Part shown: positions 25,274 to 39,669 of the stretch, one piece after another
Layout: each line of letters opens with the position of its first letter
Numbering within the stretch: position 1 is the first letter of the stretch
NCBI GenBank assembly: GCA_963933835.1
Contig: CAWVVV010000002.1
Coordinates: 320,001-384,000, forward strand
Origin: an uncultured Puniceicoccaceae bacterium
Lineage (GTDB): Bacteria; Verrucomicrobiota; Verrucomicrobiia; Opitutales; Oceanipulchritudinaceae
Direction of reading: 5' to 3'
Length of the DNA stretch: 64,000 nucleotides
Position numbers and translations under genes: made by a program
Notes under the pieces: generated by a model
What the model was told of the DNA's origin: nothing
Seen by the model: the letters and a program-made list of their open reading frames with translations, nothing else
The model's database searches: none

Positions 25274-26416
25274 ATGCCAAGCTCCGCACCGTCATCGTTT
25301 CCTGTCCTTTTATTCGCCTCCACAGAGCGCTCTGCTGATGCGCTCTATTTTGGTGGGGTCGAGGTGCCTGATGCCTTCATTGCCTTCGGCTATGGTTCAC
25401 AGCGGATTGCTGTCTTGAGTCGGCTTGAGATTGCTCGGGTGCGTAAGGAAGGCTGTTTTGACACCTGCCTGTCGTTGGAAGAATGCCAAGAGGCGGTAAA
25501 ACAGAACGGCGGGATGGGAACACCTGTAGAAGTCGTTGCTTTGATTGCGGAGGAGTGGGCGATCGAGGGTTTTGAAATCGGCTATGATTTTCCAGCGGGC
25601 CTCGCTAACCAACTCATAGGCGCAGGTGTCACCCTACGGGTTGTTGAAGGAGCGCTCTTCCCTGAACGTGAGATCAAGGCCGATATCGAGGCCGATGCAA
25701 TTCGCGAAGGTAATGCAGCTTCCGCTGCAGGCTTTAAAGTCGTGGAAAAAGCACTGCGTCGAGCCACCATTGGTCGCGGAAAGAAACTCTATCTGGATGA
25801 CAAGTTGCTCACGTCTGAGCGCCTTCGGCAAATGATCGATATTGCCTGCCTTGAGCGTAGCGCGGTAGCGAACGGAACGATCGTCGCAGGCGGAGACCAA
25901 GCTTGTGACCCCCATTGCCGAGGCACTGGGCCATTGCGTGCAGACGAGTTCATCATCGTCGATATCTTCCCGCGTGTCACAAGAACTGGATACCATGGCG
26001 ATATGACCCGTACGTATCTTAAGGGACAGGCGAGCAAGGAACAGAAGTCGCTTTACGCTGCGGTCTTTGACGCGCAGCAGGCGGCGATCAAAGAGGTGAA
26101 GGCCGGCAAGAGTGGTACGAAAATTTATAAAGGTGTGTGCGCTTCTTTTGAGGGCAAAGGCTACGCGACCGAGGTCGTTGATGGTACGCCAGTGGGCTTC
26201 TTTCATGGCCTCGGCCATGGTCTTGGGCTTGAAGTGCACGAAGCGCCCCGCGTCGGCGCAGTGAAGTCGCGCTTAAAAAAGGGGCAAGTCATCACGGTTG
26301 AGCCAGGGCTCTATTACCCCGGTCTTGGAGGTGTTCGCGTCGAGGATGTCGTGCGTGTGACGAGCGGCGAGCCGGAGATGCTTTCAAAGCATCCATATCG
26401 CTGGCACATCAAATGA
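25274..26416 (+). CDS. Xaa-Pro peptidase, M24B family
   Basis: DPH, IIVDIFP..TGYHGDMTRT, FFHGLGHGLGLEVHEAP, TVEPGLY, GVRVED. Confidence 0.93.
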   Translation: MPSSAPSSFPVLLFASTERSADALYFGGVEVPDAFIAFGYGSQRIAVLSRLEIARVRKEGCFDTCLSLEECQEAVKQNGGMGTPVEVVALIAEEWAIEGFEIGYDFPAGLANQLIGAGVTLRVVEGALFPEREIKADIEADAIREGNAASAAGFKVVEKALRRATIGRGKKLYLDDKLLTSERLRQMIDIACLERSAVANGTIVAGGDQACDPHCRGTGPLRADEFIIVDIFPRVTRTGYHGDMTRTYLKGQASKEQKSLYAAVFDAQQAAIKEVKAGKSGTKIYKGVCASFEGKGYATEVVDGTPVGFFHGLGHGLGLEVHEAPRVGAVKSRLKKGQVITVEPGLYYPGLGGVRVEDVVRVTSGEPEMLSKHPYRWHIK

Positions 26417-26470
26417 TGAATGATGAATGGTGAATGGTGTGATGTCTTAAATCTTTTCTATTCATCATTC
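26412..26470. repeat. AATGRTG heptamer tandem (x4) with short inverted partner
   Basis: AATGATG AATGATG AATGGTG AATGGTG ... ATTCATCATT. Confidence 0.65.
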
Positions 26471-26479
26471 AATATTTCC

Positions 26480-27577
26480 TTACCACGCCTTCTGCCAACC
26501 AAGCGTCAGGGCCCAATCGGTTTCGAGTTGGTAGCCATTGAGGTTTTGCCAGAGCGGAAGGCGAAGATCGATGGCGAATCGGTGCCCCTTGAGGATGCCG
26601 CCGTCGATGAGGCTGTTTACGCCGAAAATGGCTTCGATGGATTCGCCGCCGTAATTGTCGCTAAAGGCCGTCGTGACGGTTTCACGGCTCGGCGCGAAGG
26701 GTGGATTCAGTAAAAGGTCTTCCTGCTCCCCGCGCATTTTTCCCGACCATTGGTAGGCGAGGCCGGTGCTGATGCCGAATGAATTACCGAGGGGCAGGGA
26801 ACCCCATGCAGTCGCCTTGAACTGGTCGCCGAGGCGGCAGCCTTGATCGTTGTGCCCGGTACGAATTGTTCCAGCTAACTGACCCCCGAAGGAGACGCTT
26901 TCGCGCTGCTCCACCCAGGTGAAACTTGGCAGGAGGTCGTAGGTGCCGGATCCAAGTTGCATCGGTGCTGGAAGCTGGCGTTCAAAGAGTCCACCCATGC
27001 CCGGTTCGCTACCTATCGATGGAGCGGGTATTGCATCCGATTCAGTGATGGATCCGGTGGGGAGGCTGATCCCGAGGCCGACATGAGCACGGCTGTCCTC
27101 ATCACGGTAAACGGAATAGAGGGCGCTTAGCTTGATGTCGCTAACCCCTTCGGTCTCGGTCGTAAATACATCGCTGCCGCCGTTGAAGTTAAGCAGAGGT
27201 GTCGCCATGCCGAAGATGCGGTGATCCATCTCAGTGGACGTATAGTTGGCCATCGCCATGAGGGTGAGCTGATCGCTCGGGGCATGCATGAAACCCAACA
27301 TGTGCATATCCATCGTCATCTCCTCGGGCGTGATGGTGTAGTTCGCCGCGAAGACTGCATCGCTTGAGGCGCTGGTTGTTCCGTTTCGCATACCGTCCAT
27401 CTGCATTCGCATGAAGCGATAGGAGAGCATGCTTTCGCCCTTAGCGTGAATGTGTTCACCCATGATGGAGATGGGGGCATGGGCGTCGATACGGCCGGTA
27501 TCGAATGAATGAGCAAAGCTCGATGTGCTGAGTAATACGCCGGTTAAGAACGTAGAAGGGTAAGAAAATCTTTTCAT
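26480..27577 (-). CDS. His/Met-rich outer-membrane beta-barrel (transporter/phenol MetA-degradation-like family)
   Basis: Signal peptide; HAPISIMGEHIH, MTMDMHMLGFM, GISLPTG, MQLGSGTYD; terminal W. Confidence 0.75.
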   Translation of the reverse strand: MKRFSYPSTFLTGVLLSTSSFAHSFDTGRIDAHAPISIMGEHIHAKGESMLSYRFMRMQMDGMRNGTTSASSDAVFAANYTITPEEMTMDMHMLGFMHAPSDQLTLMAMANYTSTEMDHRIFGMATPLLNFNGGSDVFTTETEGVSDIKLSALYSVYRDEDSRAHVGLGISLPTGSITESDAIPAPSIGSEPGMGGLFERQLPAPMQLGSGTYDLLPSFTWVEQRESVSFGGQLAGTIRTGHNDQGCRLGDQFKATAWGSLPLGNSFGISTGLAYQWSGKMRGEQEDLLLNPPFAPSRETVTTAFSDNYGGESIEAIFGVNSLIDGGILKGHRFAIDLRLPLWQNLNGYQLETDWALTLGWQKAW

Positions 27578-27719
27578 CTGAAGTGTTTGCGTAAGGTGGG
27601 TGCCCGAGGTTCAGAATTTTACTCAGGCGGGTTGGATGTAGGCCAAAGGCGATTCAGCGCTACAGATCAATCACCTACATAGTAAAAAGTGTAGATGATT
27701 TTGGATACGGTTGGATGTC

Positions 27720-28109
27720 TTACGCTAACCGCGGAGGTGGCCCAAGTGGAGTGTCGATGTACTCGCAAGGGGGCGATGGATCGCTGAGCTGAAGCTCCTG
27801 CGTTCGAGGATGAAAAATGAGTGCAACTCCGAGGCTTCTGAGCGGGAGGAGACGGACTTCCTGCTGAAGCCGGAATTGATCAGCCTGCCAGGTATTGTCT
27901 TTCGTGTCTTCGACAAAGGCACAGTAGCCACAGCTTTCTTCTCCGTTGAAGGTGTAGGAAAGCGCGTCACCGATCGGCATTTGTTCCGAGTATTGGGAAA
28001 ACATCGTTGCCCAGCCGTAGGCTTGGACCAACGCCACATGCAGGCCGCTCAAGCACAGAAAGCAGAGAGCAGTTGCGAGAAGGAAGCAGCGTTGCAGTTT
28101 TGAAGGCAC
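27720..28109 (-). CDS. Exported leader protein with CxxC and C-terminal PPPR (candidate arrest peptide)
   Basis: Hydrophobic N-terminus, TFNGEESCGYC, ends DTPLGPPPRLA*; upstream of the OM barrel gene. Confidence 0.7.
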   Translation of the reverse strand: MPSKLQRCFLLATALCFLCLSGLHVALVQAYGWATMFSQYSEQMPIGDALSYTFNGEESCGYCAFVEDTKDNTWQADQFRLQQEVRLLPLRSLGVALIFHPRTQELQLSDPSPPCEYIDTPLGPPPRLA

Positions 28110-28215
28110 AGGACGAAAACGGGGTCATTTGTCGGTTTTTCGTCCCGCAAGTGTCAACCGATTTTGCGCAAGAAGCGGGTGGGCAAAGCGCAGGTTTCTA
28201 TGCTAATCTGTTTCC

Positions 28216-29058
28216 ATGGCATCGCATTATGACTGCATCGCAACCGCGATTGATCTCTTGGTGAAGCGACACGCGGAGGTACCGAGTCTGGAGGAACTCA
28301 GCGGTCAAGCTGGTTTGAGCTTATCCCACTTTCAGCGGCTCTTCACGGAGTTCGTCGGGATCAGTCCGAAGCGTTTCTCCCAGCACCTGTTTTTGCAGGA
28401 CGCGAGGGAGCGGCTTCAACGAGGAGAAGCGGTGCTGGATGCAGCCTTGGGTTCGGGACTTTCTGGACCAGGACGATTGCATCATCTGACCGTGCATTGC
28501 GAGGCGGTTACGCCAGGGGAACAGCGTTCAGGAGGCAAGGATCTGCGGATTGAATATGATTGGAGCTTAACCCCTTTCGGCTGGGGTCTCTTTGGGAAAA
28601 CGTCGCGCGGCTTGTGCTATTTTGCGCTCCATGAGACTGCCTCGGAGGAGGCCCTCGCGGCGCTCAAGAAACGGTTTCCTGCCGCGGATCTGGAGGAGAA
28701 GTTAGGACTAGCGGCTGAGCTTTGTGCTCGGATCTTTTCTTCGGAGCCAAGTGGGCCAATAGCGTTGCATCTTCGGGGAACAAATTTCCAGATCCAAGTC
28801 TGGCAGGCCTTGATGGCAATTCCCGATGGATTGGCCGCAAGCTACGGATCCGTCGCTCGCAAAATAGACCGCCCAAAAGCTTCGCGTGCGGTCGGCACTG
28901 CGGTGGGAAATAACCCCGTCGCGATCCTTATTCCGTGCCATCGTGTGCTGCGCGAGAGTGGGGCGATCGGTGGCTACCGCTGGGGCTTGGATAGGAAGCG
29001 TGCGCTCCTGGCCTGGGAGCGAGCCCGGCCTGCGAATAGCAGCTCAGTAGGTAGATAG
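28216..29058 (+). CDS. AraC-HTH / methylated-DNA-protein-cysteine methyltransferase fusion (Ada-like without N-terminal Zn domain)
   Basis: SLSHFQRLF..GISPK, GTNFQIQVW, RAVGTAVG.NP, IPCHRV. Confidence 0.93.
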   Translation: MASHYDCIATAIDLLVKRHAEVPSLEELSGQAGLSLSHFQRLFTEFVGISPKRFSQHLFLQDARERLQRGEAVLDAALGSGLSGPGRLHHLTVHCEAVTPGEQRSGGKDLRIEYDWSLTPFGWGLFGKTSRGLCYFALHETASEEALAALKKRFPAADLEEKLGLAAELCARIFSSEPSGPIALHLRGTNFQIQVWQALMAIPDGLAASYGSVARKIDRPKASRAVGTAVGNNPVAILIPCHRVLRESGAIGGYRWGLDRKRALLAWERARPANSSSVGR

Positions 29059-29083
29059 CCGAAATTGAGGGCGTGTGGGTGCC

Positions 29084-29115
29084 TTGACTTTCCAATGTAG
29101 CCTGTGCTACATTGG
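29084..29115 (+). promoter_or_regulatory. sigma70-type promoter (TTGACT-18-TACATT) overlapped by a perfect 10-4-10 palindromic operator
   Basis: CCAATGTAGC-CTGT-GCTACATTGG at 29092-29115, 4 nt before the ATG of the metal-binding protein. Confidence 0.75.
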
Positions 29116-29119
29116 TCAT

Positions 29120-30058
29120 ATGTTTAAACTTGGATGGTTATTGTTAGCGCTTTTCATTGGCTTGCCGCTGGCGGGACAAACGGAGCCGTATCGGATCGTT
29201 GCGACGGTTGCGATGGTGACGGATATTGTTCGCCAAGTGGCGGGTGATCGCGCCGAGGTCACGGGGCTACTGGGCGAGGGGATCGACCCTCACCTCTACA
29301 AGCCCACCCGAACCGACATCGGTCAACTGCTTCGCGCGGACGTAATTTTCTACAATGGCCTCCTTCTTGAAGGTAAAATGTCCGACGCGCTCATCCGCGC
29401 TGCGACCGCAGGCAAGAAGGTCCACGCGGTCACGGAACTGATCGACGAAGGCTATCTTCTCTCACCCGAAGAATTTGCAGGCCACTATGATCCGCATGTT
29501 TGGATGGACCCTAGCGCGTGGGCGAAGGCGGTTGATGTGGTTGAGGCGAAATTGACAGCGTTTGATCCCGCGAGTGAAACGACCTACGCGACAAATGCGG
29601 CGGCATTGAGGGAACGGATCCAAAAACTGGATGCGTATGCTGAGCAGGCTCTAAGCAGTGTGCCTGAAAAACAACGTGTGCTCGTAACCGCGCACGACGC
29701 CTTTAACTATTTCGGCCGTCGCTTCGGCTACGAAGTTGTTGGCATCCAAGGTATCTCAACGGAGTCAGAGGCAGGTGTGCTTGATTTGGAGAACCTCGTG
29801 AATCTCCTCGTCGAACGAAAAGTTCGCGCCGTATTTGTCGAATCAACCGTTTCTGAGCGCAATATTAAGGCACTTATTGCGGGTGCAGCAGCTCGAGGAC
29901 ACACCGTTGTCATCGGAGGTGAACTCTTTAGTGATGCGATGGGGCAGCCTGGTACCTATGAGGGAACCTATATCGGGATGATCGATCACAACGCATCGAC
30001 GGTGGCGCGAGCGCTCGGGGGCACTCTGCCTGAAGGTGGATTTTCAACTGCGGACTGA
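29120..30058 (+). CDS. Mn/Zn/Fe ABC transporter substrate-binding protein (TroA-like)
   Basis: [34 protein letters not shown]. Confidence 0.95.
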
Positions 30059-30062
30059 ATCA

Positions 30063-30914
30063 ATGGGAACTGACCGCACACTGCTTCACCGTACCGGTAT
30101 TTCGGATACACGAGAACCGCTTTCGACGCGCCCCGAACACTCGGCGGAAAGTCCGCTCTCAATTCACGCGATGACGGTGGCCTACCACCGGCGCCCAGTG
30201 CTGTGGGATGTCGATTACGACGCCCCATCAAATAAGCTGATCGCGATCGTTGGTCCAAATGGGGCGGGCAAGAGCACCATGATAAAGGCCTGCTTGGGTC
30301 TCACTCAACGCGCCTCTGGCCAAGTCGAATACTGGGGGCGATCTTATCGCAGTCAGCGCAGTCGGGTGGGGTATGTGCCGCAACGCGAAACCGTCGACTG
30401 GGACTTCCCGGTTTCCGCCCTCGATGTCGTTTGTATGGGGCTTTACCGCGAGATCGGCTGGCTGCGCCCTGTAGGTAAAAAACATAAAGCCCTCGCTTTG
30501 GAATGCCTCGATAAGGTGGGCATGGCTGACTACGCTCAGCGCCAGATCAGTCAGCTCTCGGGTGGCCAGCAGCAACGGGTTTTCCTTGCACGGGCGCTCG
30601 CACAGCAGGCGGATCTCTATTTCATGGACGAGCCCTTTGTCGGGGTCGATACAGCCACCGAGCGTTCGATTATAGCGGTTTTGAGGGATCTGCGTGATTC
30701 AGGAAAAACAGTCATTGCGGTCCATCATGACTTGCCGACCGTTCCTGAGTATTTTGATGAAGTCGTCTTGCTGAATATGCGGGTCGTTGCCTCTGGGCCT
30801 GTCCCGGAAGTGTTCACGCAGGACAATTTGCAGAAGACTTATGGTGGCCGGCTTACGCTTCTTTCCGAGGCGGCAGAAGCGATGGCTCGGGCGGCGTCTG
30901 GATTGGACTCTTGA
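30063..30914 (+). CDS. Mn/Zn ABC transporter ATP-binding protein (TroB-like)
   Basis: [32 protein letters not shown]. Confidence 0.95.
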
Positions 30915-32281
30915 TCGATATTTTGATGTCTCCGATCGTATTAGAAAATCTGCTACTGCAGCTCGATCCACAAGTCGTGTGGGAGACGCTGACGCTGCGC
31001 AGTGGATACAACTCCACGGTTGTTATCGTGGGGACGACACTCCTTGGAATCAGCGCCGGCGTCGTGGGTGTCTTTGCGCTTTTACGCAAACGCTCCTTGA
31101 TGGCTGATGCACTGAGTCACGCCACTCTTCCGGGAATTGGATTGGCCTTTATCATCGCGACTTGGCTGGGATATGAAGGCCGCAGCTTGCCAATACTCCT
31201 GACGGGGGCCGCCATTACGGGTGTGCTCGGGGTCGTGACAATCCAATGGCTTGTGCGCTCTACGCGTCTTCGCGAGGACGCAGCGATTGGCATCGTGCTC
31301 AGTGTTTTCTTTGGCATTGGAGTCGTGATCCTCAGTATCGTTCAGTCGATGAAGGCGGGGACAGCCGGTGGCATAAATCATTTTATCTATGGCCAAACGG
31401 CTGCAATGAGTGCGGCGGATGCTAAGCTCATGGGGCTCATCGCACTGGCCACGGTCTTCTTCGCCTTCTTCTTGCTTAAGGAATTTGCTGTTGTGTGTTT
31501 CAATGACGCCTTTGCTCAAGTGACAGGTTGGCCAGTTTCGAAAATCGATCTCCTGATGATGGCTTTGGTCGCGCTGGTTACGGTGGCTGGTTTGCAGGCG
31601 GTAGGCCTTATCCTGGTCGTTGCAATGTTGATCATTCCTGCGGTTGCGGCGCGTTTTTGGACCGAGCGATTATGGAAACTCATTTTGCTCGCGGGTCTGA
31701 TCGGGGGCGTCTCGGGCTATCTCGGATCGGTCGCTTCAGCGCTGTTGCCGCGGAAGCCAGCGGGGGCGGTCATCGTATTGACGGCGGGGATGATTTTCAC
31801 CCTGAGTATGTTTATCGCTCCGTCGCGTGGTGTCTTAGCATCGGTCTTACGCCGTATGAGGTTGAAACTCCGAATCGCGACGGATCACCTCCTGGAGGCG
31901 ACGGTCGATGAGGACGAGAGCACGAGAGGTTCTCTATCCGTCGCAAACACTAAGGTTCTTCAGAAGAAGCGAAATTGGGGGGCATGGCTTCACTTCGCAG
32001 TGCCGCTTTTTGTTCGTGTGAAAGGATTCGGACGCTTTGAGAAGGGGGCTTTTCTAGCCTCTGAAGTGGGACTTCAACGAGGACTCCGCGTGGAACGAAA
32101 TCATCAGCTCTGGGAACAATATCTTCTCTCATATGCGGATATCGCGCCGGGGCACATTGACTGGACGGTCGATCAAGTGGAGCACGTCTTGAGTCCCGAA
32201 CTGATCAATGAATTAGAAATCCTCATACAAGAGCGGACGGGTGAATCCTTTGAAATCGCATCGCGGGGAGGTATAGCGTGA
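30911..32281 (+). CDS. Mn/Zn ABC transporter permease with C-terminal DtxR-like domain (TroC-like)
   Basis: [17 protein letters not shown]; tail [15 protein letters not shown]...[11 protein letters not shown]. Confidence 0.92.
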
Positions 32282-33600
32282 TCGATTTTATTCCTGCACT
32301 TGATCTGTTCCCCCTTATGGCTGCGCTGCTTGCAGCCCTTACCTGTGGACTGCTGGGGAACTTCCTCGTTCTCAGAAAGATCAGTTTGATGGGCGACGCG
32401 ATCAGTCATTCGGTGCTGCCGGGGCTTGTTATTGCATTTTTGATTACATCAACGCGGAGTCCGATGATTATGTTTATTGGAGCGGCGGCGGCGGGACTCG
32501 CGACGGTTGCTCTCGTCGAAGTAGTGAAAAAGCTAGGACGCGTCGAATCTGGTGCCGCGATGGGGGTGGTGTTTAGCATCCTCTTCGCTTTTGGCGTATT
32601 GCTCATCGAGCAGGCGGCGGCGCGACATGTGGACCTCGATGCGGACTGTGTCTTGTATGGACAACTGGAAACGCTGGTGTGGTTTGAGGCTCCGCTGGAA
32701 TTAGGGGCCTTGCTTTCGTTCGCGACGATCGAGGCGCTGCCTCGGCAAGTGATTGTGTTGTTTTCGATACTTACACTTTCGTTGGCATTCGTCGTGGTTT
32801 TCTTCAAGGAACTCCGGGTGACGGCCTTCGACCCCGCGTTAGCGACGAGCCTAGGGATCAACGCGAATATGATGCACTACGGCTTGATGCTCTTCGTCGC
32901 AGCGGCCACCGTCGCAGCTTTTGAAGCAGTGGGATCGATCCTTGTTATTGCGATGTTGGTTTGCCCCGGCGCGACGGCTCGGCTTTGGACCGATCGGCTT
33001 TCGCATCAGATTTTTGTAAGCTTGGCCTTTGCCACTGGAAGTGCGGTGACGGGTTATTTCGGAGCGACGACGATACCGTCTTGGTTCGATGCCGGGAGCG
33101 TGAATGCGGCGGGGAGCATGACGGTGGCAGCGGGAGGCTTTTTGGCCCTGTCAGTTTTCTTTGCTCCGCAGTATGGGCTAGTAGCGAAGCGTCTACGGGC
33201 GAAGCGGCTTCAACGTGATTCCGCGATGGATCAGCTCTTGGCTGGACTACTGCGTGCTCGAGAAAAAGGGGCGCACTGGATTGATCTGTGTGTCCTCACT
33301 CGGGCTTCGATGGGGTTTGATTTGGGGAGGGCAGCAATACGGGCAAAGCGGCTCGGCTATGTCGAGCGGCAAGCATTGGAGTTAAATCTGACAGCGCGCG
33401 GCCTCGAGGAAGCAAAAGCGATCCTGAGACGCCACCGCGGCTGGGAGAGCTATCTGGTTGATGATGCGGGCATCCGTCCAGACAATGTTCATGCGCTCGC
33501 CGAGCAGCTTGAACATATCTCAGTTGAGCCAACCGTTGCGAAGGAGTTGGACCCTCATGGGCAGCCTATTTACCCCCGTAAATCAGAGGATGATACATAG
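32278..33600 (+). CDS. Mn/Zn ABC transporter permease with C-terminal DtxR-like domain (TroD-like)
   Basis: GDAISHSVLPG, HVDLDADCVLYG, FDPALA; tail LTARG..AKAILRRHRGWESYL...AEQLEH...DPHGQPI. Confidence 0.92.
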   Translation: MIDFIPALDLFPLMAALLAALTCGLLGNFLVLRKISLMGDAISHSVLPGLVIAFLITSTRSPMIMFIGAAAAGLATVALVEVVKKLGRVESGAAMGVVFSILFAFGVLLIEQAAARHVDLDADCVLYGQLETLVWFEAPLELGALLSFATIEALPRQVIVLFSILTLSLAFVVVFFKELRVTAFDPALATSLGINANMMHYGLMLFVAAATVAAFEAVGSILVIAMLVCPGATARLWTDRLSHQIFVSLAFATGSAVTGYFGATTIPSWFDAGSVNAAGSMTVAAGGFLALSVFFAPQYGLVAKRLRAKRLQRDSAMDQLLAGLLRAREKGAHWIDLCVLTRASMGFDLGRAAIRAKRLGYVERQALELNLTARGLEEAKAILRRHRGWESYLVDDAGIRPDNVHALAEQLEHISVEPTVAKELDPHGQPIYPRKSEDDT

Positions 33601-33615
33601 TTTGTAGGCGATTTC

Positions 33616-34461
33616 CTAATACGCCATGCCGATGCCGATGCGAAATTCATCGCCCCCGCCAAGACTAGAGTTCTGACGTTTCTCGTAGAGGTTGAAGTTG
33701 TATCCGACTTTGAAGAGAATGGTCTTATCGATCCACCAAAATAAGGCGGGCCCACCGCGTAGTCGGGTATAGCCAGATCCACCGTCATCGTAGTGGTGGT
33801 CGAAGTCGAATTCGAGGGTGACTTGGGTTGAGGTCGTCGGAATGAAGCCGATTTTGGCATCGGCATCAATCCGGTTGCCGCGATTGTCTGCGCCTTCCAG
33901 CCAGTAAGTGATCCCGCCTCCGATGATATAGTTGGGGGTTTCTCGTTTTGCGCTGATACCGATGCCCCAATCGGTCGAGCCATCGCTGAAGCCAATGGGG
34001 CTATCTTCGTCGCCGGTTGGCAGCTCGATGCGAGGATTTAGGGAGATGTTCCCCGAAAAACCTTTGCCGTTGTAGTATTTCCGGATCGGGAAGGCCAGTT
34101 TGAGGTTTCCAAAACCTTCGTCTGTCTGGGTGACGGCGGTGCCGTTCTCGATCGTGGTTTTCTCAGCTCGATGGTAAGGCAACGTTCCGACGATGCGGAG
34201 TGAGCGATCCCAGGTGTAGACACCTCCAAATTCAGCGGTGTGCAGGCTCGATGAGAGGCCCAGTGGATTGGCAATTGAATCGGTTCCATTCAGAATTTCA
34301 TCCGCGTCCTGCCATTTATAGAAGACCTGCCAGCCGTAGCCATAATCCCAGCGCGGGACCATGCTCATGACGGGGGTCTCGGCAAAGGTGGCGGGTGCGA
34401 CCAAGAGAGTGCCAAGGACAGCGACGAGCCATCCTCGAATACCGGAGCGCTTTCTCTTCAT
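33616..34461 (-). CDS. Putative outer-membrane beta-barrel (transporter-like)
   Basis: Signal peptide; EGFGNL, IELPTG, SDGSTD; alternating aromatic strands; terminal Y. Confidence 0.65.
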   Translation of the reverse strand: MKRKRSGIRGWLVAVLGTLLVAPATFAETPVMSMVPRWDYGYGWQVFYKWQDADEILNGTDSIANPLGLSSSLHTAEFGGVYTWDRSLRIVGTLPYHRAEKTTIENGTAVTQTDEGFGNLKLAFPIRKYYNGKGFSGNISLNPRIELPTGDEDSPIGFSDGSTDWGIGISAKRETPNYIIGGGITYWLEGADNRGNRIDADAKIGFIPTTSTQVTLEFDFDHHYDDGGSGYTRLRGGPALFWWIDKTILFKVGYNFNLYEKRQNSSLGGGDEFRIGIGMAY

Positions 34462-34464
34462 GCT

Positions 34465-35004
34465 CTAGAGGGTGGATGTGAGCTCAGCGATATAGCTCTG
34501 CGCCTTGAGGTCGCTCTGGCGAATTGAAATCAGCTGCTCGCTGGCGAGGTCGGTCGATTCGACGGTCAAGTTCAGCGGCGTATCGATGCCGGGCACAGTG
34601 TATTGCTCCCCTAGGAGTTCCCCGTCTTCGAGGAGGTAAATCGAGATGGGGTCGTAGCCGGCATCGCTGACTGCTTTGACAATCGCGCGCAGATCAATCG
34701 CTTCACCGGGTTCGCGGGCAAGAGTTAGGAACTGGGTATAGATGTCCATCTGCAGCCCTTTGTCGAAACGGCTGCGGTCGATGCCGTCGACTTTGCGCAG
34801 CTTGCGATTGATCCCGAATGCGCAGGTTTCGCAGATGAGACCTTTGACGCGCAATGCGACGGTGTTGTCTTCCGCTTGTAAGATCTCGGTGGCTTTGGCG
34901 GCCTCGATTTCAGGGGTGTAGGATTGTTCGACGGCGTCCGTCGGAGAGGCACTGAGCGCGCTCGCACAGAGGAGCGCGGTAAAAAGAAGGGTCTTAAAGT
35001 TCAT
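34465..35004 (-). CDS. Exported heavy-metal-associated (HMA)-domain protein
   Basis: Signal peptide MNFKTLLFTALLCASALSA; LRVKGLICETCA...AVSDAGY. Confidence 0.8.
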   Translation of the reverse strand: MNFKTLLFTALLCASALSASPTDAVEQSYTPEIEAAKATEILQAEDNTVALRVKGLICETCAFGINRKLRKVDGIDRSRFDKGLQMDIYTQFLTLAREPGEAIDLRAIVKAVSDAGYDPISIYLLEDGELLGEQYTVPGIDTPLNLTVESTDLASEQLISIRQSDLKAQSYIAELTSTL

Positions 35005-35113
35005 GATTTTGAGTATTTCGAAGTTAGAAAGTGTGTTGAAGAATTTGCATACAGCATTGGCGCTGTGCGATTTGCCGCGTGAAAGGTACACGGCTGAGTC
35101 GTCTTCTAGGTTT

Positions 35114-35581
35114 CTAGCTTCGAGGTGGAGGTGAATCCACTCCCTCAAATTGCTGCGGCGAGAGCACAGCTGAACTGTCGATAAGGGCGGCATCGCTTCC
35201 TTGAGCGAAGCTATGGCCTAAATCGTCGTTTAATTTGATGTGCGCGTGTGAGCTGGGCGCAGTCTCTGAAGGACCGCAACCGTGGCTGCATGCCCCCGTG
35301 TCGTGGCATGATTTGCCGGGGCAGTCGTTCGAACCATGGTCCTGATGAGCGTCTTCGCTCGGCTCTGGTTCTGAGTCGCTGCAGCAAGGATCTGCTTCGC
35401 AGCTATCTTGCACTATCACCGCTGTTCCCTGCTCATGGTCGCTTACAGGCAAGGTGTTCACGCTCCACGCGGGGAGGAAAACAAGGCTACTGCAAAGGAG
35501 GAAAACAAGGCTACTGCAAAGGAGGAAAACAAGGCTACTGCAAAGGAGGAAAACAAGGCTACTGCAAAGGAGGCGCATCAT
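35114..35581 (-). CDS. Exported Cys/His-rich leader protein ending in PPPR (candidate arrest peptide)
   Basis: Hydrophobic N-terminus with 4x LLCSSLVF; SCEADPCC, CPGKSCHDTGACSHGC; ends GVDSPPPRS*. Confidence 0.7.
   Translation of the reverse strand: MMRLLCSSLVFLLCSSLVFLLCSSLVFLLCSSLVFLPAWSVNTLPVSDHEQGTAVIVQDSCEADPCCSDSEPEPSEDAHQDHGSNDCPGKSCHDTGACSHGCGPSETAPSSHAHIKLNDDLGHSFAQGSDAALIDSSAVLSPQQFEGVDSPPPRS
35473..35573. repeat. Perfect 24-bp tandem repeat x4 (plus 5 nt)
   Basis: GGAGGAAAACAAGGCTACTGCAAA at 35473, 35497, 35521, 35545. Confidence 0.97.
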
Positions 35582-35698
35582 AGTGCTATAATGAAGAAGC
35601 ATAGGTTGCAGAGATTATTCCGCAAGCAAATCTTTTCACTGTATTAACTCGGGTGGTCGGCGCTTTGCTGAAGGCGCGTAGTTGTCGCACGGCGGCGC

Positions 35699-37465
35699 TT
35701 ACATTCTTTCGAGCGTTTCTAGGCCGAGAAGATGCAGTCCAGTTTCCAAAGTGAGGAGCGTTTGCGCGCATAGACTCAAGCGGCGGGCGCGAATCGCGGG
35801 GTCTTCAATCGAGACCCGATCTGCGGCGTAAAAGGTGCTGAAAAGCCCGGCCAACTCGAAGAGGTAAGTGCAGAGGTTGTGTGGACGGTAGTCGCCAAGT
35901 GCTTGTTCGAACGCAGATGGAAAGGCGACCAGTTTGCGTGCGAGTGCGATCTCGGTTTCGGTTTCAGGAGCGGAGGCCGCGCTGACAAAGTCGTCCGTCG
36001 GGCGCACCTCGAGCTTGCGGAAGATACTGTGGATCCGCGCGCCTGCGTAGAGCAGGTAAGGGGCGGTGTTGCCCTCAAGAGCGAGCATCTTGTCCCATGA
36101 GAATTGGTAATCGCTTGAGCGGTTTTGCGAGAGGTCGGCATAGCGCACGGCACCTATCCCAATGGCCTCGGCGACGCGGGATTGCTCTTCTTCGGCGAGT
36201 TCAGGATTTTTCTCCGAGACGATCGCGAGGGCTCGATTGTGAGCTTCTTCAAGGAGGGCTTTGAGCTTAACGTTATCGCCTTCCTTTGTTTTGAGGGGCT
36301 TTCCGTTGGGTCCGAGGATAGTGCCGTTGCTCACGTGCTTCAGCTTTGGAAGGGTCCATCCGCGCGCTTCAAACCACTTCTTCGTCGTGAGAAAAAGCTG
36401 TTCGAAGTGATCGCTTTGTCGCGAATCGACGCAGTAGAGGATATCGTCGGAGGCGAGTTCTTTGGCTCGGTAATAAATCGTTGCGAGGTCAGTCGTGGCG
36501 TAGTTCGACGCACCATCAGTCTTGCGGACAATGAAGGGCTGCTTCGCGAAACGCGGGTGCTCGGGGTGGAAGACGACAAGCGCGCCTTCACTTTTCTCTG
36601 AGAGTCCAGTTTCAGCCAACTCTTCGTAGATGTTGTCGACGCGGTCGCGGTAGAAGCTTTCACCCAGGGCGGTGTCGAATTTCACGCCAAGGCGATCGTA
36701 GTTGCTCTCGAAGGCATGCCAGCTGACTTCGGTGATCTTCTTCCAGATCGTAAGGTTCTCTTCGTCACCTTGCTGGAGTTTGACGAGTTCGTCGCGGACT
36801 TCCTGTGCGATTTCTGGGGAGCTTTTGTAGGCGGCATTGCCCTCTTTATAAAGTGCTTCGAGATCGGCGACGGGGTTTTCGTGTTCAGCATCGAGGTCGT
36901 GGCCACTTTTCTTCAGGGAGTAGATGATCATCCCGAACTGGGTGCCCCAGTCGCCGAGGTGATTATCGCGGGTCACTTCAGCGCCCGCATAGGTAAGCAT
37001 GCGTGCAAGGGCCTCGCCGATGACGGTCGAGCGGATGTGCCCAACGTGCATTTCCTTCGCCGTGTTGGGCGAGCTGTAGTCGACGACCGCTTTTAAGCCC
37101 TTTCGTAGCTGCGAAGAGTTTTGGGCGAAGGCATCAGCGGCGCCGAAGGCTTCGATCCACTTGAGCAGAAAGGTGGGTTGCAGACTGAAATTGAGAAAGC
37201 CCGGTCCAGCGATCGATACCGTAACGTAGTTTGGGTCGAGAGCGCCCGAGGCGACGACGGCGTCGAGGAGTTTTTGCCCGAGAGGTCGCGGTGGAACGCC
37301 GACCTTTTTTGCGACGCCGAGGATGCCATTGGCCTGAAAATCTCCGTGCCGCGGATCGGCGGCGCGGAGGATCGGGTCGAAGTCAGCGCCGAGCTCAGGT
37401 ATCGCTGCCGCCGCATCGACGATGACTCGTTGGAGAAAAACGGAGGGTTGATAGTCCACCTGCAT
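35699..37465 (-). CDS. argS: Arginine--tRNA ligase
   Basis: DYSSPNTAKEMHVGHIRST, NHLGDWGTQFG, GNTAPYLLY. Confidence 0.98.
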   Translation of the reverse strand: MQVDYQPSVFLQRVIVDAAAAIPELGADFDPILRAADPRHGDFQANGILGVAKKVGVPPRPLGQKLLDAVVASGALDPNYVTVSIAGPGFLNFSLQPTFLLKWIEAFGAADAFAQNSSQLRKGLKAVVDYSSPNTAKEMHVGHIRSTVIGEALARMLTYAGAEVTRDNHLGDWGTQFGMIIYSLKKSGHDLDAEHENPVADLEALYKEGNAAYKSSPEIAQEVRDELVKLQQGDEENLTIWKKITEVSWHAFESNYDRLGVKFDTALGESFYRDRVDNIYEELAETGLSEKSEGALVVFHPEHPRFAKQPFIVRKTDGASNYATTDLATIYYRAKELASDDILYCVDSRQSDHFEQLFLTTKKWFEARGWTLPKLKHVSNGTILGPNGKPLKTKEGDNVKLKALLEEAHNRALAIVSEKNPELAEEEQSRVAEAIGIGAVRYADLSQNRSSDYQFSWDKMLALEGNTAPYLLYAGARIHSIFRKLEVRPTDDFVSAASAPETETEIALARKLVAFPSAFEQALGDYRPHNLCTYLFELAGLFSTFYAADRVSIEDPAIRARRLSLCAQTLLTLETGLHLLGLETLERM

Positions 37466-39111: not shown

Positions 39112-39669
39112 TTAGACGCGGCCGAGGTAGCTTTTGTCTTCGGTCGATACCTTGATTTTGTCGCCCGTCTTGATAAAGAGCGGGGTCTGAACGACGAGGC
39201 CCGTCGCGGTGGTTACAGGCTTGAGGGCAGCGCCGGAGGTATCACCCCGGAGAGCAGCAGGCGCTTCGGTCACTTCCATTTCAACGGAGACTGGTAGTTG
39301 AATCTGGACAGGATTATCATCGACGAAGAGGACGTCGACGGGGTTGCCCTCATCGAGAAAGTCTTTCGCCTCTTCGACGAGATTTTCGGCAAGGATGACA
39401 TCTTCGAACGTCTCAGGGTCCATGAAGTGGTAGCCCATGTCGTCGATGTAACTGAACTCGAGACGCTTTGTGTCTGTCGTAAGAATATCGACCGTTTCGG
39501 TGGAGCGAATCTTCTGCGTCGTGCTCGAACCGGAATTGAGGTTGCGCATATTGACCTGAACAAAACCAGCTTGGCGGCCTTGCGACCGTTGTTGGGCATC
39601 GAGAACGAGATGCGGCTGTTTGTTGTAGAGGATTACATTCCCTTTTCGGATTTCAGTCGGAGTAGCCAT
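39112..39669 (-). CDS. efp: Elongation factor P
   Basis: IRKG, FMDPETFE, RGDTS..KP.T..TG..VQTPLFI..GD.IKV.T. Confidence 0.95.
   Translation of the reverse strand: MATPTEIRKGNVILYNKQPHLVLDAQQRSQGRQAGFVQVNMRNLNSGSSTTQKIRSTETVDILTTDTKRLEFSYIDDMGYHFMDPETFEDVILAENLVEEAKDFLDEGNPVDVLFVDDNPVQIQLPVSVEMEVTEAPAALRGDTSGAALKPVTTATGLVVQTPLFIKTGDKIKVSTEDKSYLGRV

Follow-up and report, generated by a model that had tools for sequence, protein, structure and literature searches.

Within a 64,000-nucleotide stretch of genome from an uncultured Puniceicoccaceae bacterium of the phylum Verrucomicrobiota (contig CAWVVV010000002.1; this whole stretch is the window below), a unit of three genes lies on the minus strand directly after argS (35699-37465). 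The first of these genes (35114..35581) is, on balance, probably a cis-acting regulatory leader of the CutF type, whose product would be stalled by metal and would thereby switch on the two genes behind it, an exported HMA-fold protein and an outer-membrane barrel. The first-pass annotation had proposed a nascent-peptide metal sensor here. That proposal holds by analogy and comparison, through a CutF-like tail, a 48-residue spacing, base pairing at the stop region and low predicted order (pLDDT 0.47 in the Atlas model), while the regulation itself we infer.

The leader gene comprises 155 codons and a stop. It encodes a signal peptide, an acidic mature part rich in cysteine and histidine, and the conserved tail FEGVDSPPPRS (35117..35149, minus strand), in which the three proline codons at 35123-35131, two residues before the stop, are the proposed stall site. 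By eye, the signal peptide consists of MMR, a hydrophobic core and PAWS/VNT, and it aligns with MNRLL...PSWS/IGQ of the homologous protein P0002. An in-frame ATG at 35602, seven codons upstream of 35581, is an alternative start that would give 162 aa; 35581 is preferred because P0002 begins at the equivalent position of the alignment. After PAWS/VNT the mature leader has 115 residues, including 7 Cys, 8 His, 20 Asp or Glu and 3 Lys or Arg. A candidate metal-ligand region, delimited by motifs and alignment, spans 35276..35404 on the minus strand and runs from SCEADPCC through HQDH to CPGKSCHDTGACSHGC (CEADPCC at 35381-35404, HQDH at 35336-35347, CPGKSCHDTGACSHGC at 35276-35323); the cysteine motifs of the leader include CSHGC, CPGKSC and SCEADPCC. 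The 155-aa open reading frame (ORF), its hydrophobic N-terminus, these ligand motifs and the ending GVDSPPPRS had all been reported in the first-pass annotation and are present, as are the ORFs for an exported HMA protein with a CETC motif and then a beta-barrel. The 109-nt spacer with two small GC hairpins that it described was likewise borne out by a minimum free energy fold. No composition anomaly hinting at recent transfer was found.

The leader is a real and conserved gene with a very narrow distribution. Homologues were sought by a word-indexed search of 5.8 billion clustered proteins and by an exhaustive profile search of 1.84 billion representatives. The word-indexed search returned a two-unit form of the leader itself and P0002, and no others. 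The profile search gave four matches at E<=0.001. P0002 alone covers the leader; the others are a long repeat protein (P0004) and two partial matches (P0005 and P0006). The sole true homologue is P0002 (131 aa, 46% identity), and its conservation is uneven: both the block CPGKSCHDxGACSHGCGPS and the final VDSPPPRS (8/8) are identical, and the distance from CSHGC to the PPP is exactly 48 residues in both family members, with no insertion or deletion. Neither the leader (0/36) nor the HMA protein (0/36) was found in other genomes of the same family, scans of genome contigs and metagenome contigs with profiles of the two yielded no confirmed locus, and no Pfam or NCBIfam family matched the leader.

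The tail of the leader is of the CutF type: VDSPPPRS-stop is of the same kind as GPPPRL-stop. CutF of Rhodobacter capsulatus, a DUF2946 protein encoded in the cutFOG operon, ends in P109-EPEGPPPRL-118 (10.1101/2025.02.05.636593). Replacement of its PPP by PAP abolishes copper control of the next gene, its stalling is linked to EF-P and to export during translation, and it senses periplasmic copper; the paused ribosome opens a stem-loop that otherwise masks the next gene's ribosome-binding site (10.1101/2025.02.05.636593; PMC9973294; the CutF literature also includes PMC8456105). Like CutF, the leader has a Sec signal peptide, a ligand site containing CxxxC, PPP-Arg followed by one residue and a stop, a structured spacer that pairs with the initiation region of the next gene, and a copper-type gene downstream, in a protein of 155 aa as against 118 aa. 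Under the operational definition of CutF-like proteins given by Ozturk et al. 2023 (PMC9973294), all four features are found here: a signal peptide, a Cys/His motif, PPP near the stop and an HMA gene 109 nt downstream. The CutF-like lists in that paper are dominated by Pseudomonadota and Bacteroidota, and Verrucomicrobia are unnamed in the portions of its main text consulted; the literature found by full-text search on copper arrest peptides in Verrucomicrobia treats RAPP or RGPP tails only.

Several features nevertheless set the leader apart from CutF. No sequence relationship can be detected, the ligand region is much richer (7 Cys, 8 His), the phylum is Verrucomicrobiota, and the signal peptide varies in length. 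The downstream genes are those for an HMA protein and a COG4313-type barrel, whereas that of CutF is a multicopper oxidase, and the predicted helix masks an initiation region lacking a Shine-Dalgarno (SD) sequence, with the stop-codon region itself as one arm. The CutF mechanism is already known; new here are a sequence-unrelated leader, a cargo of MerP-like protein and COG4313-type channel, and a signal peptide of variable length.

A second reference point is CruR (Bp2923) of Bordetella pertussis, another DUF2946 protein, which ends in RAPP and in which the 45-residue spacing between CxxC and RAPP matters (PMC9426467). Its arrest was shown in vitro by toeprint (PMC12992588), and it acts through Rho termination with inverse logic, copper relieving the arrest, over a 162-nt intergenic region (PMC9426467). 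The leader resembles CruR as an exported upstream ORF with a Cys motif and a C-terminal proline motif at a fixed distance (45 residues in CruR, 48 here), followed by a long intergenic region and an outer-membrane transporter. It differs in that CruR has RAPP, is independent of EF-P, has a dispensable signal peptide and precedes a TonB-dependent receptor.

Membership of the leader in DUF2946 was considered and rejected. The DUF2946 model (PF11162; cut-off 23.7 bits) gave no match for the leader at E<=0.1 or for P0002 at E<=10, and hhalign against seven DUF2946 ORFs of the same phylum gave 20%, with only the signal peptide aligned. Instead of the DUF2946 motif pair, CxxC and RAPP about 45 residues apart, the leader has CxxxC and PPPR, at the similar spacing of 48. 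A six-frame DUF2946 search of the genome gave two sub-threshold chance matches, both elsewhere than the leader. DUF2946 is sparse in the phylum (5/301 genomes above the cut-off), and the seven ORFs end in R[AG]PP or CGPP with 43-45 residues from Cys to proline (7/7). The fixed distance of 48 residues, beside 43-45 in the DUF2946 leaders of the phylum and a spacing that matters in CruR, argues for a CutF-type leader.

The products of both genes behind the leader score below the curated cut-offs of their families. The HMA-fold protein (34465..35004, minus strand; 179 aa) is MerP/CopZ-like, with a signal peptide, the motif GLICETC and a C-terminal extension of about 60 residues. It scores 17.8 bits against Pfam HMA (PF00403), below the cut-off of 24.8, E 1.1e-7 against NCBIfam MerP, and E 2.3e-12 (phmmer) against metal-binding domains of Cu-ATPases in the PDB. 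It is like MerP in combining a signal peptide with a CxxC HMA domain, and unlike MerP and CopZ in its sub-threshold family score and its C-terminal extension. The barrel (33616..34461, minus strand; 281 aa, 12-stranded) starts 3 nt after the HMA stop and is of the COG4313/FapF type. Its score against PF13557 (Phenol_MetA_deg) is 19.6 bits, below the cut-off of 22; its AF2 model (pLDDT 75) gives Foldseek TM scores of 0.63-0.66 to FapF (5o65) and to the COG4313 structure 4rl8, so that in fold it resembles Pput2725 and FapF, and in the Atlas it reaches TM 0.85 to PF13557 clusters, which are commonest in Verrucomicrobiota. COG4313 channels have been linked to hydrophobic substrates (PMC4493636), not to metals. 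The mature barrel opens, at residues 29-38, with the motif Q-P-[IV]-M-x-M-[MV]-P-R-W, which shows no or almost no variation in 12/12 aligned barrels. This methionine motif may be a Cu(I) site or a plug, and as such a hint of Cu(I).

The operon recurs in relatives. Of 250 other genomes drawn from the class, 12 have a barrel homologue (27-35% identity), and in each of these 12 loci the gene directly ahead of the barrel encodes a CxxC protein of 137-181 aa; homology of this protein to the HMA protein of the window was confirmed for two loci (34% and 40% identity, E 2e-26 and 5e-27). At 8 of the 12, the HMA gene is preceded, at a distance of 97-155 nt, by another exported Cys-rich ORF of 110-148 aa, and the spacer falls in this range at all nine leader-bearing loci. 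These upstream proteins are of several types that cannot be aligned: one ends in TVPPPRDLV-stop (G436), six are C[IV]WRL-like and one ends in FCRLLL. Across loci where the leader types cannot be aligned, HMA protein and barrel remain 27-40% identical. Position, export signal, richness in cysteine and a long spacer are thus kept in the leader and sequence is not, a pattern more in keeping with a peptide under selection for a few local features than with a folded protein. A fast-evolving leader beside stable HMA and barrel genes, together with the helix at the stop region, the lack of an SD signal and the predicted disorder, points to the CutF-type reading.

The C[IV]WRL-type proteins contain 9-12 Cys (L017:494-901, L021:2872-3276, L020:2855-3250, L023:534-914, L025:2833-3198 and L024:487-903). 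They carry proline motifs such as PPGPK and GPPPIP, which in 5/6 follow the last Cys motif by 49-51 residues and lie 11-14 residues short of the end. Homology of the window leader to this type was rejected (hhalign 2%). The C[IV]WRL ending may be a different arrest tail. In L017, L021 and L024, the last codons of these leaders pair strongly with the HMA initiation region.

In the window, the spacer between leader and HMA gene (35005..35113, minus strand) is exactly 109 nt long, C-rich and G-poor (32 C, 16 G). A 166-nt fragment around it folds with a z score of -3.78, and none of 200 shuffles was as stable. Apart from the two small hairpins, which lack a U-tract, the fold contains a helix of 12 bp with one bulge on each side, and the same pairs form in three fragment contexts. 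Its 5' arm (35111..35123, minus strand) takes in the third Pro codon's last nucleotide, the codons for Arg and Ser, the stop codon and 3 nt; its 3' arm (35018..35030, minus strand) corresponds to -14 to -26 relative to the HMA start codon. The duplex between tail and initiation region has an energy of -16.7 kcal/mol, compared with -10.8 +/- 2.2 for dinucleotide shuffles, of which 6/500 were as good. Among the nine leader-bearing loci, of which the window is one, the cognate duplex was the best of nine at 4/9, and at 4/9 (the window, L017, L021 and L024, with L017 and L021 close kin) it beat 95% of shuffles. A ribosome paused on the PPP would be expected to cover most of the 5' arm, and when such a ribosome was modelled the probability that -30..-14 is unpaired rose from 0.32 to 0.68. 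The modelling thus offers partial support for unmasking of the HMA start. The genome shows no SD signal (98 of 677 long ORFs, or 14%, equal to shuffled sequence), which makes accessibility and structure a plausible determinant of initiation.

No credible match to an Rfam family, riboswitch or known RNA was obtained in 26000-36500 at E<=1, and neither an intrinsic terminator nor a sigma-70 promoter was found on the operon strand. A contig from an RNA library (run X8) extends unbroken from 34470 to 35502 over leader, spacer and HMA gene, a weak hint of a common transcript given that DNA carry-over is possible. Run X8 has no contig beyond about 35587 (35588-35720), and three DNA runs continue into argS. 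This end is compatible with a transcript start near the ATG and says little, as DNA contigs break at the repeat as well. No sequence variants were seen in the spacer across the sequencing runs examined, and run depths are unsuitable for ranking genes.

Terminal PPPR is rare in this genome. Among 2,766 six-frame ORFs of 100-300 aa, only three have PPPR within the last 7 residues, namely the leader, a companion leader at 27720..28109 and one Arg-rich ORF, so that the likeness between the tails of the two leaders is more than chance. This third ORF (G000 C2:319715-320059, plus strand, ending at window position 59) encodes 114 aa with the ending ...SLPPPRWGS and looks like an out-of-frame artefact. 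The companion, leader 1 (27720..28109, minus strand), has 129 aa and a CGYC motif, ends in GPPPRLA-stop and lies 142 nt upstream of the gene for a 365-aa barrel (26480-27577, minus strand). Its likeness to the leader is confined to the tail, as had been claimed: BLASTP found nothing and hhalign aligned 11 tail columns only, and homology between the two was rejected on these grounds. Homology of leader 1 to DUF2946 was rejected too (profile similarity 0.5%; no Pfam match). The two barrels show only weak similarity by BLASTP (E 0.17).

Homologues of the 365-aa barrel occur in 36 of 250 other genomes of the class, and an ORF of 126-161 aa with CxxC and a proline tail lies upstream of it at 15 of 25 loci examined; the other 10 were unflagged, some of them at contig ends or belonging to distant homologues. 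The resulting leader-1 family, for which there is no Pfam model, has 17 sequences (window 27720-28109 and L029-L049). In their alignment Q, W, M, A, T, C-x-x-C and PPP are invariant, and Arg follows the PPP in 15/17, then 1-3 residues and the stop. These proteins have an N-terminal membrane helix with Q-x-G/A-A-W and about 60 residues from CxxC to PPP, and they precede His/Met-rich barrels in many genomes of the class. As far as sequence can tell, the ending PPP-Arg-x(1-3)-stop is shared by at least three leader types of the class that are unrelated to one another. The invariance of the terminal PPP in the leader-1 family (17/17), and the unrelated TVPPPRDLV leader on the orthologous operon of G436, lend further support to a CutF-type function of the window leader.

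From this comparison we infer that stalling occurs, that it depends on metal, which metal it is and which way the switch works, as follows. The leader would be made with its Sec signal peptide and threaded into the periplasm during translation. Once translation arrives at the Pro-Pro-Pro codons, three codons before the stop, the Cys/His cluster would trail by 48-65 residues and would just have cleared the ribosome tunnel and the translocon. Binding of a thiophilic metal, most probably Cu(I), to these ligands might then prevent the nascent chain from folding or oxidising and so from pulling itself out, and the EF-P-dependent pause on the PPP would be prolonged. The paused ribosome would cover 35111-35123, otherwise paired with -14 to -26 of the HMA gene, and the initiation region would be freed. 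Production of the periplasmic HMA protein would follow, as would that of the outer-membrane channel, which is translationally coupled to it, and the two would probably carry copper out of the periplasm.

Several observations weigh against this mechanism. The leader proved unrelated to DUF2946, the family of CutF, in every test. At 4 of the 12 orthologous loci there is no leader, and a sigma-factor gene is the neighbour; together with the six C[IV]WRL endings, this indicates that the operon does not in general need a terminal PPP stall. Pairing between tail and initiation region is unremarkable at 5/9 leader-bearing loci, and because the family has two members, with DNA from only one, the helix is without covariation support. 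In the model of the paused ribosome, the accessibility of -13..+12 is unchanged. Lastly, with 115 mature residues the leader could equally be a real periplasmic protein.

This last point leads to an alternative that we regard as unlikely, namely that the gene product is a stable metal-binding protein, periplasmic or anchored in the membrane, which serves as a metallothionein-like buffer or chaperone and acts in trans alongside the HMA protein and barrel. On this view the PPPR end and the RNA helix are incidental, or account for no more than ordinary translational coupling. A mature part of this size with 7 Cys and 8 His would suit such a protein, a Cys-rich exported protein with various endings occupies the same position in 8/12 orthologous operons, and the nearest named language-model cluster of the leader is CzcI (score 0.93), although this is a lead only. 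However, conservation is concentrated in the tail, the distance from Cys to PPP is fixed, disorder is predicted, and every member of the unrelated leader-1 family has the terminal PPP. CutF, whose size is similar, works in cis and is broken down upon export (PMC9973294).

Quite unlikely, in our view, is a logic like that of CruR, in which an intrinsic pause on the PPP blocks Rho on the C-rich spacer and metal relieves the pause, so that Rho terminates before the HMA gene. The operon would then be a copper-uptake route shut off by metal. Rho is encoded in the genome, the spacer of 109 nt with twice as much C as G recalls the 162-nt intergenic region of CruR, the spacers of all nine leader-bearing loci are long, and the module adjoins a metal importer in a marine bacterium with a small genome. 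Against this, the tail is of the CutF type (PPPR) and not RAPP or RGPP, the C/G ratio is only 1.03-1.68 in the other eight spacers, the spacer of the window is partly folded, and the helix between stop region and initiation region would be left without a role. That the leader is a chance ORF or an assembly artefact is highly improbable: it has a perfect repeat at its N-terminus where short-read assemblies (X4, X11) break, but the idea is contradicted by a protein homologue with conserved Cys positions and tail, by identical sequence in several independent runs, by the assembly of a two-unit allele and by an RNA-library contig that covers the leader.

The repeat in question is a perfect in-frame tandem repeat of 24 nt x 4.2 (35473..35573, minus strand) that encodes (LCSSLVFL)n, the h-region of the signal peptide (TRF, 100% matches, score 202), so that the hydrophobic N-terminus of the leader reads LCSSLVFL four times. 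Of the perfect arrays in the genome (1.94 Mb, 94 TRF rows), it has the highest score, and the first-pass annotation had not noted it. A 146-aa form of the leader with two repeat units is present in the protein database (P0001), and a contig from an independent run (X10) joins 35472 to 35521, skipping exactly 48 nt, which corresponds to the two-unit allele; short-read contigs of DNA runs X4 and X11 break at the repeat. The signal peptide is therefore two or four repeat units long in different samples, which is new here. These natural alleles offer a way to ask how the sensor is set by targeting and pulling force.

It is a long shot that PPP-Arg, one to three residues and a stop form a portable EF-P-gated arrest cassette, acquired independently by unrelated exported Cys/His peptides (CutF in Alphaproteobacteria and at least three non-alignable families in Verrucomicrobiota), and that the 24-nt repeat, in two or four units, alters targeting and pulling and so re-tunes the set-point as a heritable, reversible dial. 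If the leader does stall, nascent-chain metal sensing is confined neither to DUF2946 nor to Proteobacteria and Bacteroidota, and unrelated peptides would have adopted this PPPR ending repeatedly. The widespread COG4313-type branch of barrels and their MerP-like partners in marine Verrucomicrobiota would also gain a first function, in copper traffic across the outer membrane. A genome without an SD signal is a clean case in which a paused ribosome could gate initiation by RNA structure alone, and the constant 48-residue ruler between ligand site and stall site is directly testable.

The two leader modules flank a ZnuA/ABC-3 operon (29075-33600) in this genome, and the first-pass annotation had taken them to bracket a Mn/Zn ABC operon. 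The arrangement holds here; in relatives, 0 of 36 scanned flanking ORFs were ZnuA or ABC-3, the 36 having been chosen from 101 ORFs of >=170 aa in 33 loci, with flanks of 1.5 kb. There the module of the present leader (module 2) has a sigma factor and Lnt as neighbours; that of leader 1 (module 1) has genes for AIR-synthase-like, sugar-binding, MFS and M24 peptidase proteins. The idea of a single metal cluster of ~9 kb is accordingly unsupported, since the importer was not found beside either module in the scanned flanks of relatives. Nor is there support for tuning of the modules to different metals, as had been suggested, both having copper-type features (CxxC or CxxxC, HMA, barrels with Met/His-rich N-termini). 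We see two independent copper-type switches, judged by their motifs, that appear to be neighbours by chance here, and not a conserved multi-metal cluster.

Some neighbouring genes merit brief mention. The only EF-P gene of the genome (one match) lies at 39112-39669 on the minus strand, 3.5 kb from the PPPR leader, and its loop reads ...SQGRQAG..., which we take to resemble that of Arg-type EF-P. Between leader 1 and the ABC operon, a plus-strand gene at 28216-29058 combines an AraC-type helix-turn-helix with the DNA-binding domain of 6-O-methylguanine-DNA methyltransferase; it is Ada-like and probably unrelated to metals. The two ABC-3 permeases (30911-32281 and 32278-33600, plus strand) both carry a C-terminal Fe_dep_repr_C domain of DtxR type (E 2.6e-8 and 9.6e-13), and are possibly transporters with built-in repressor-type metal sensors.

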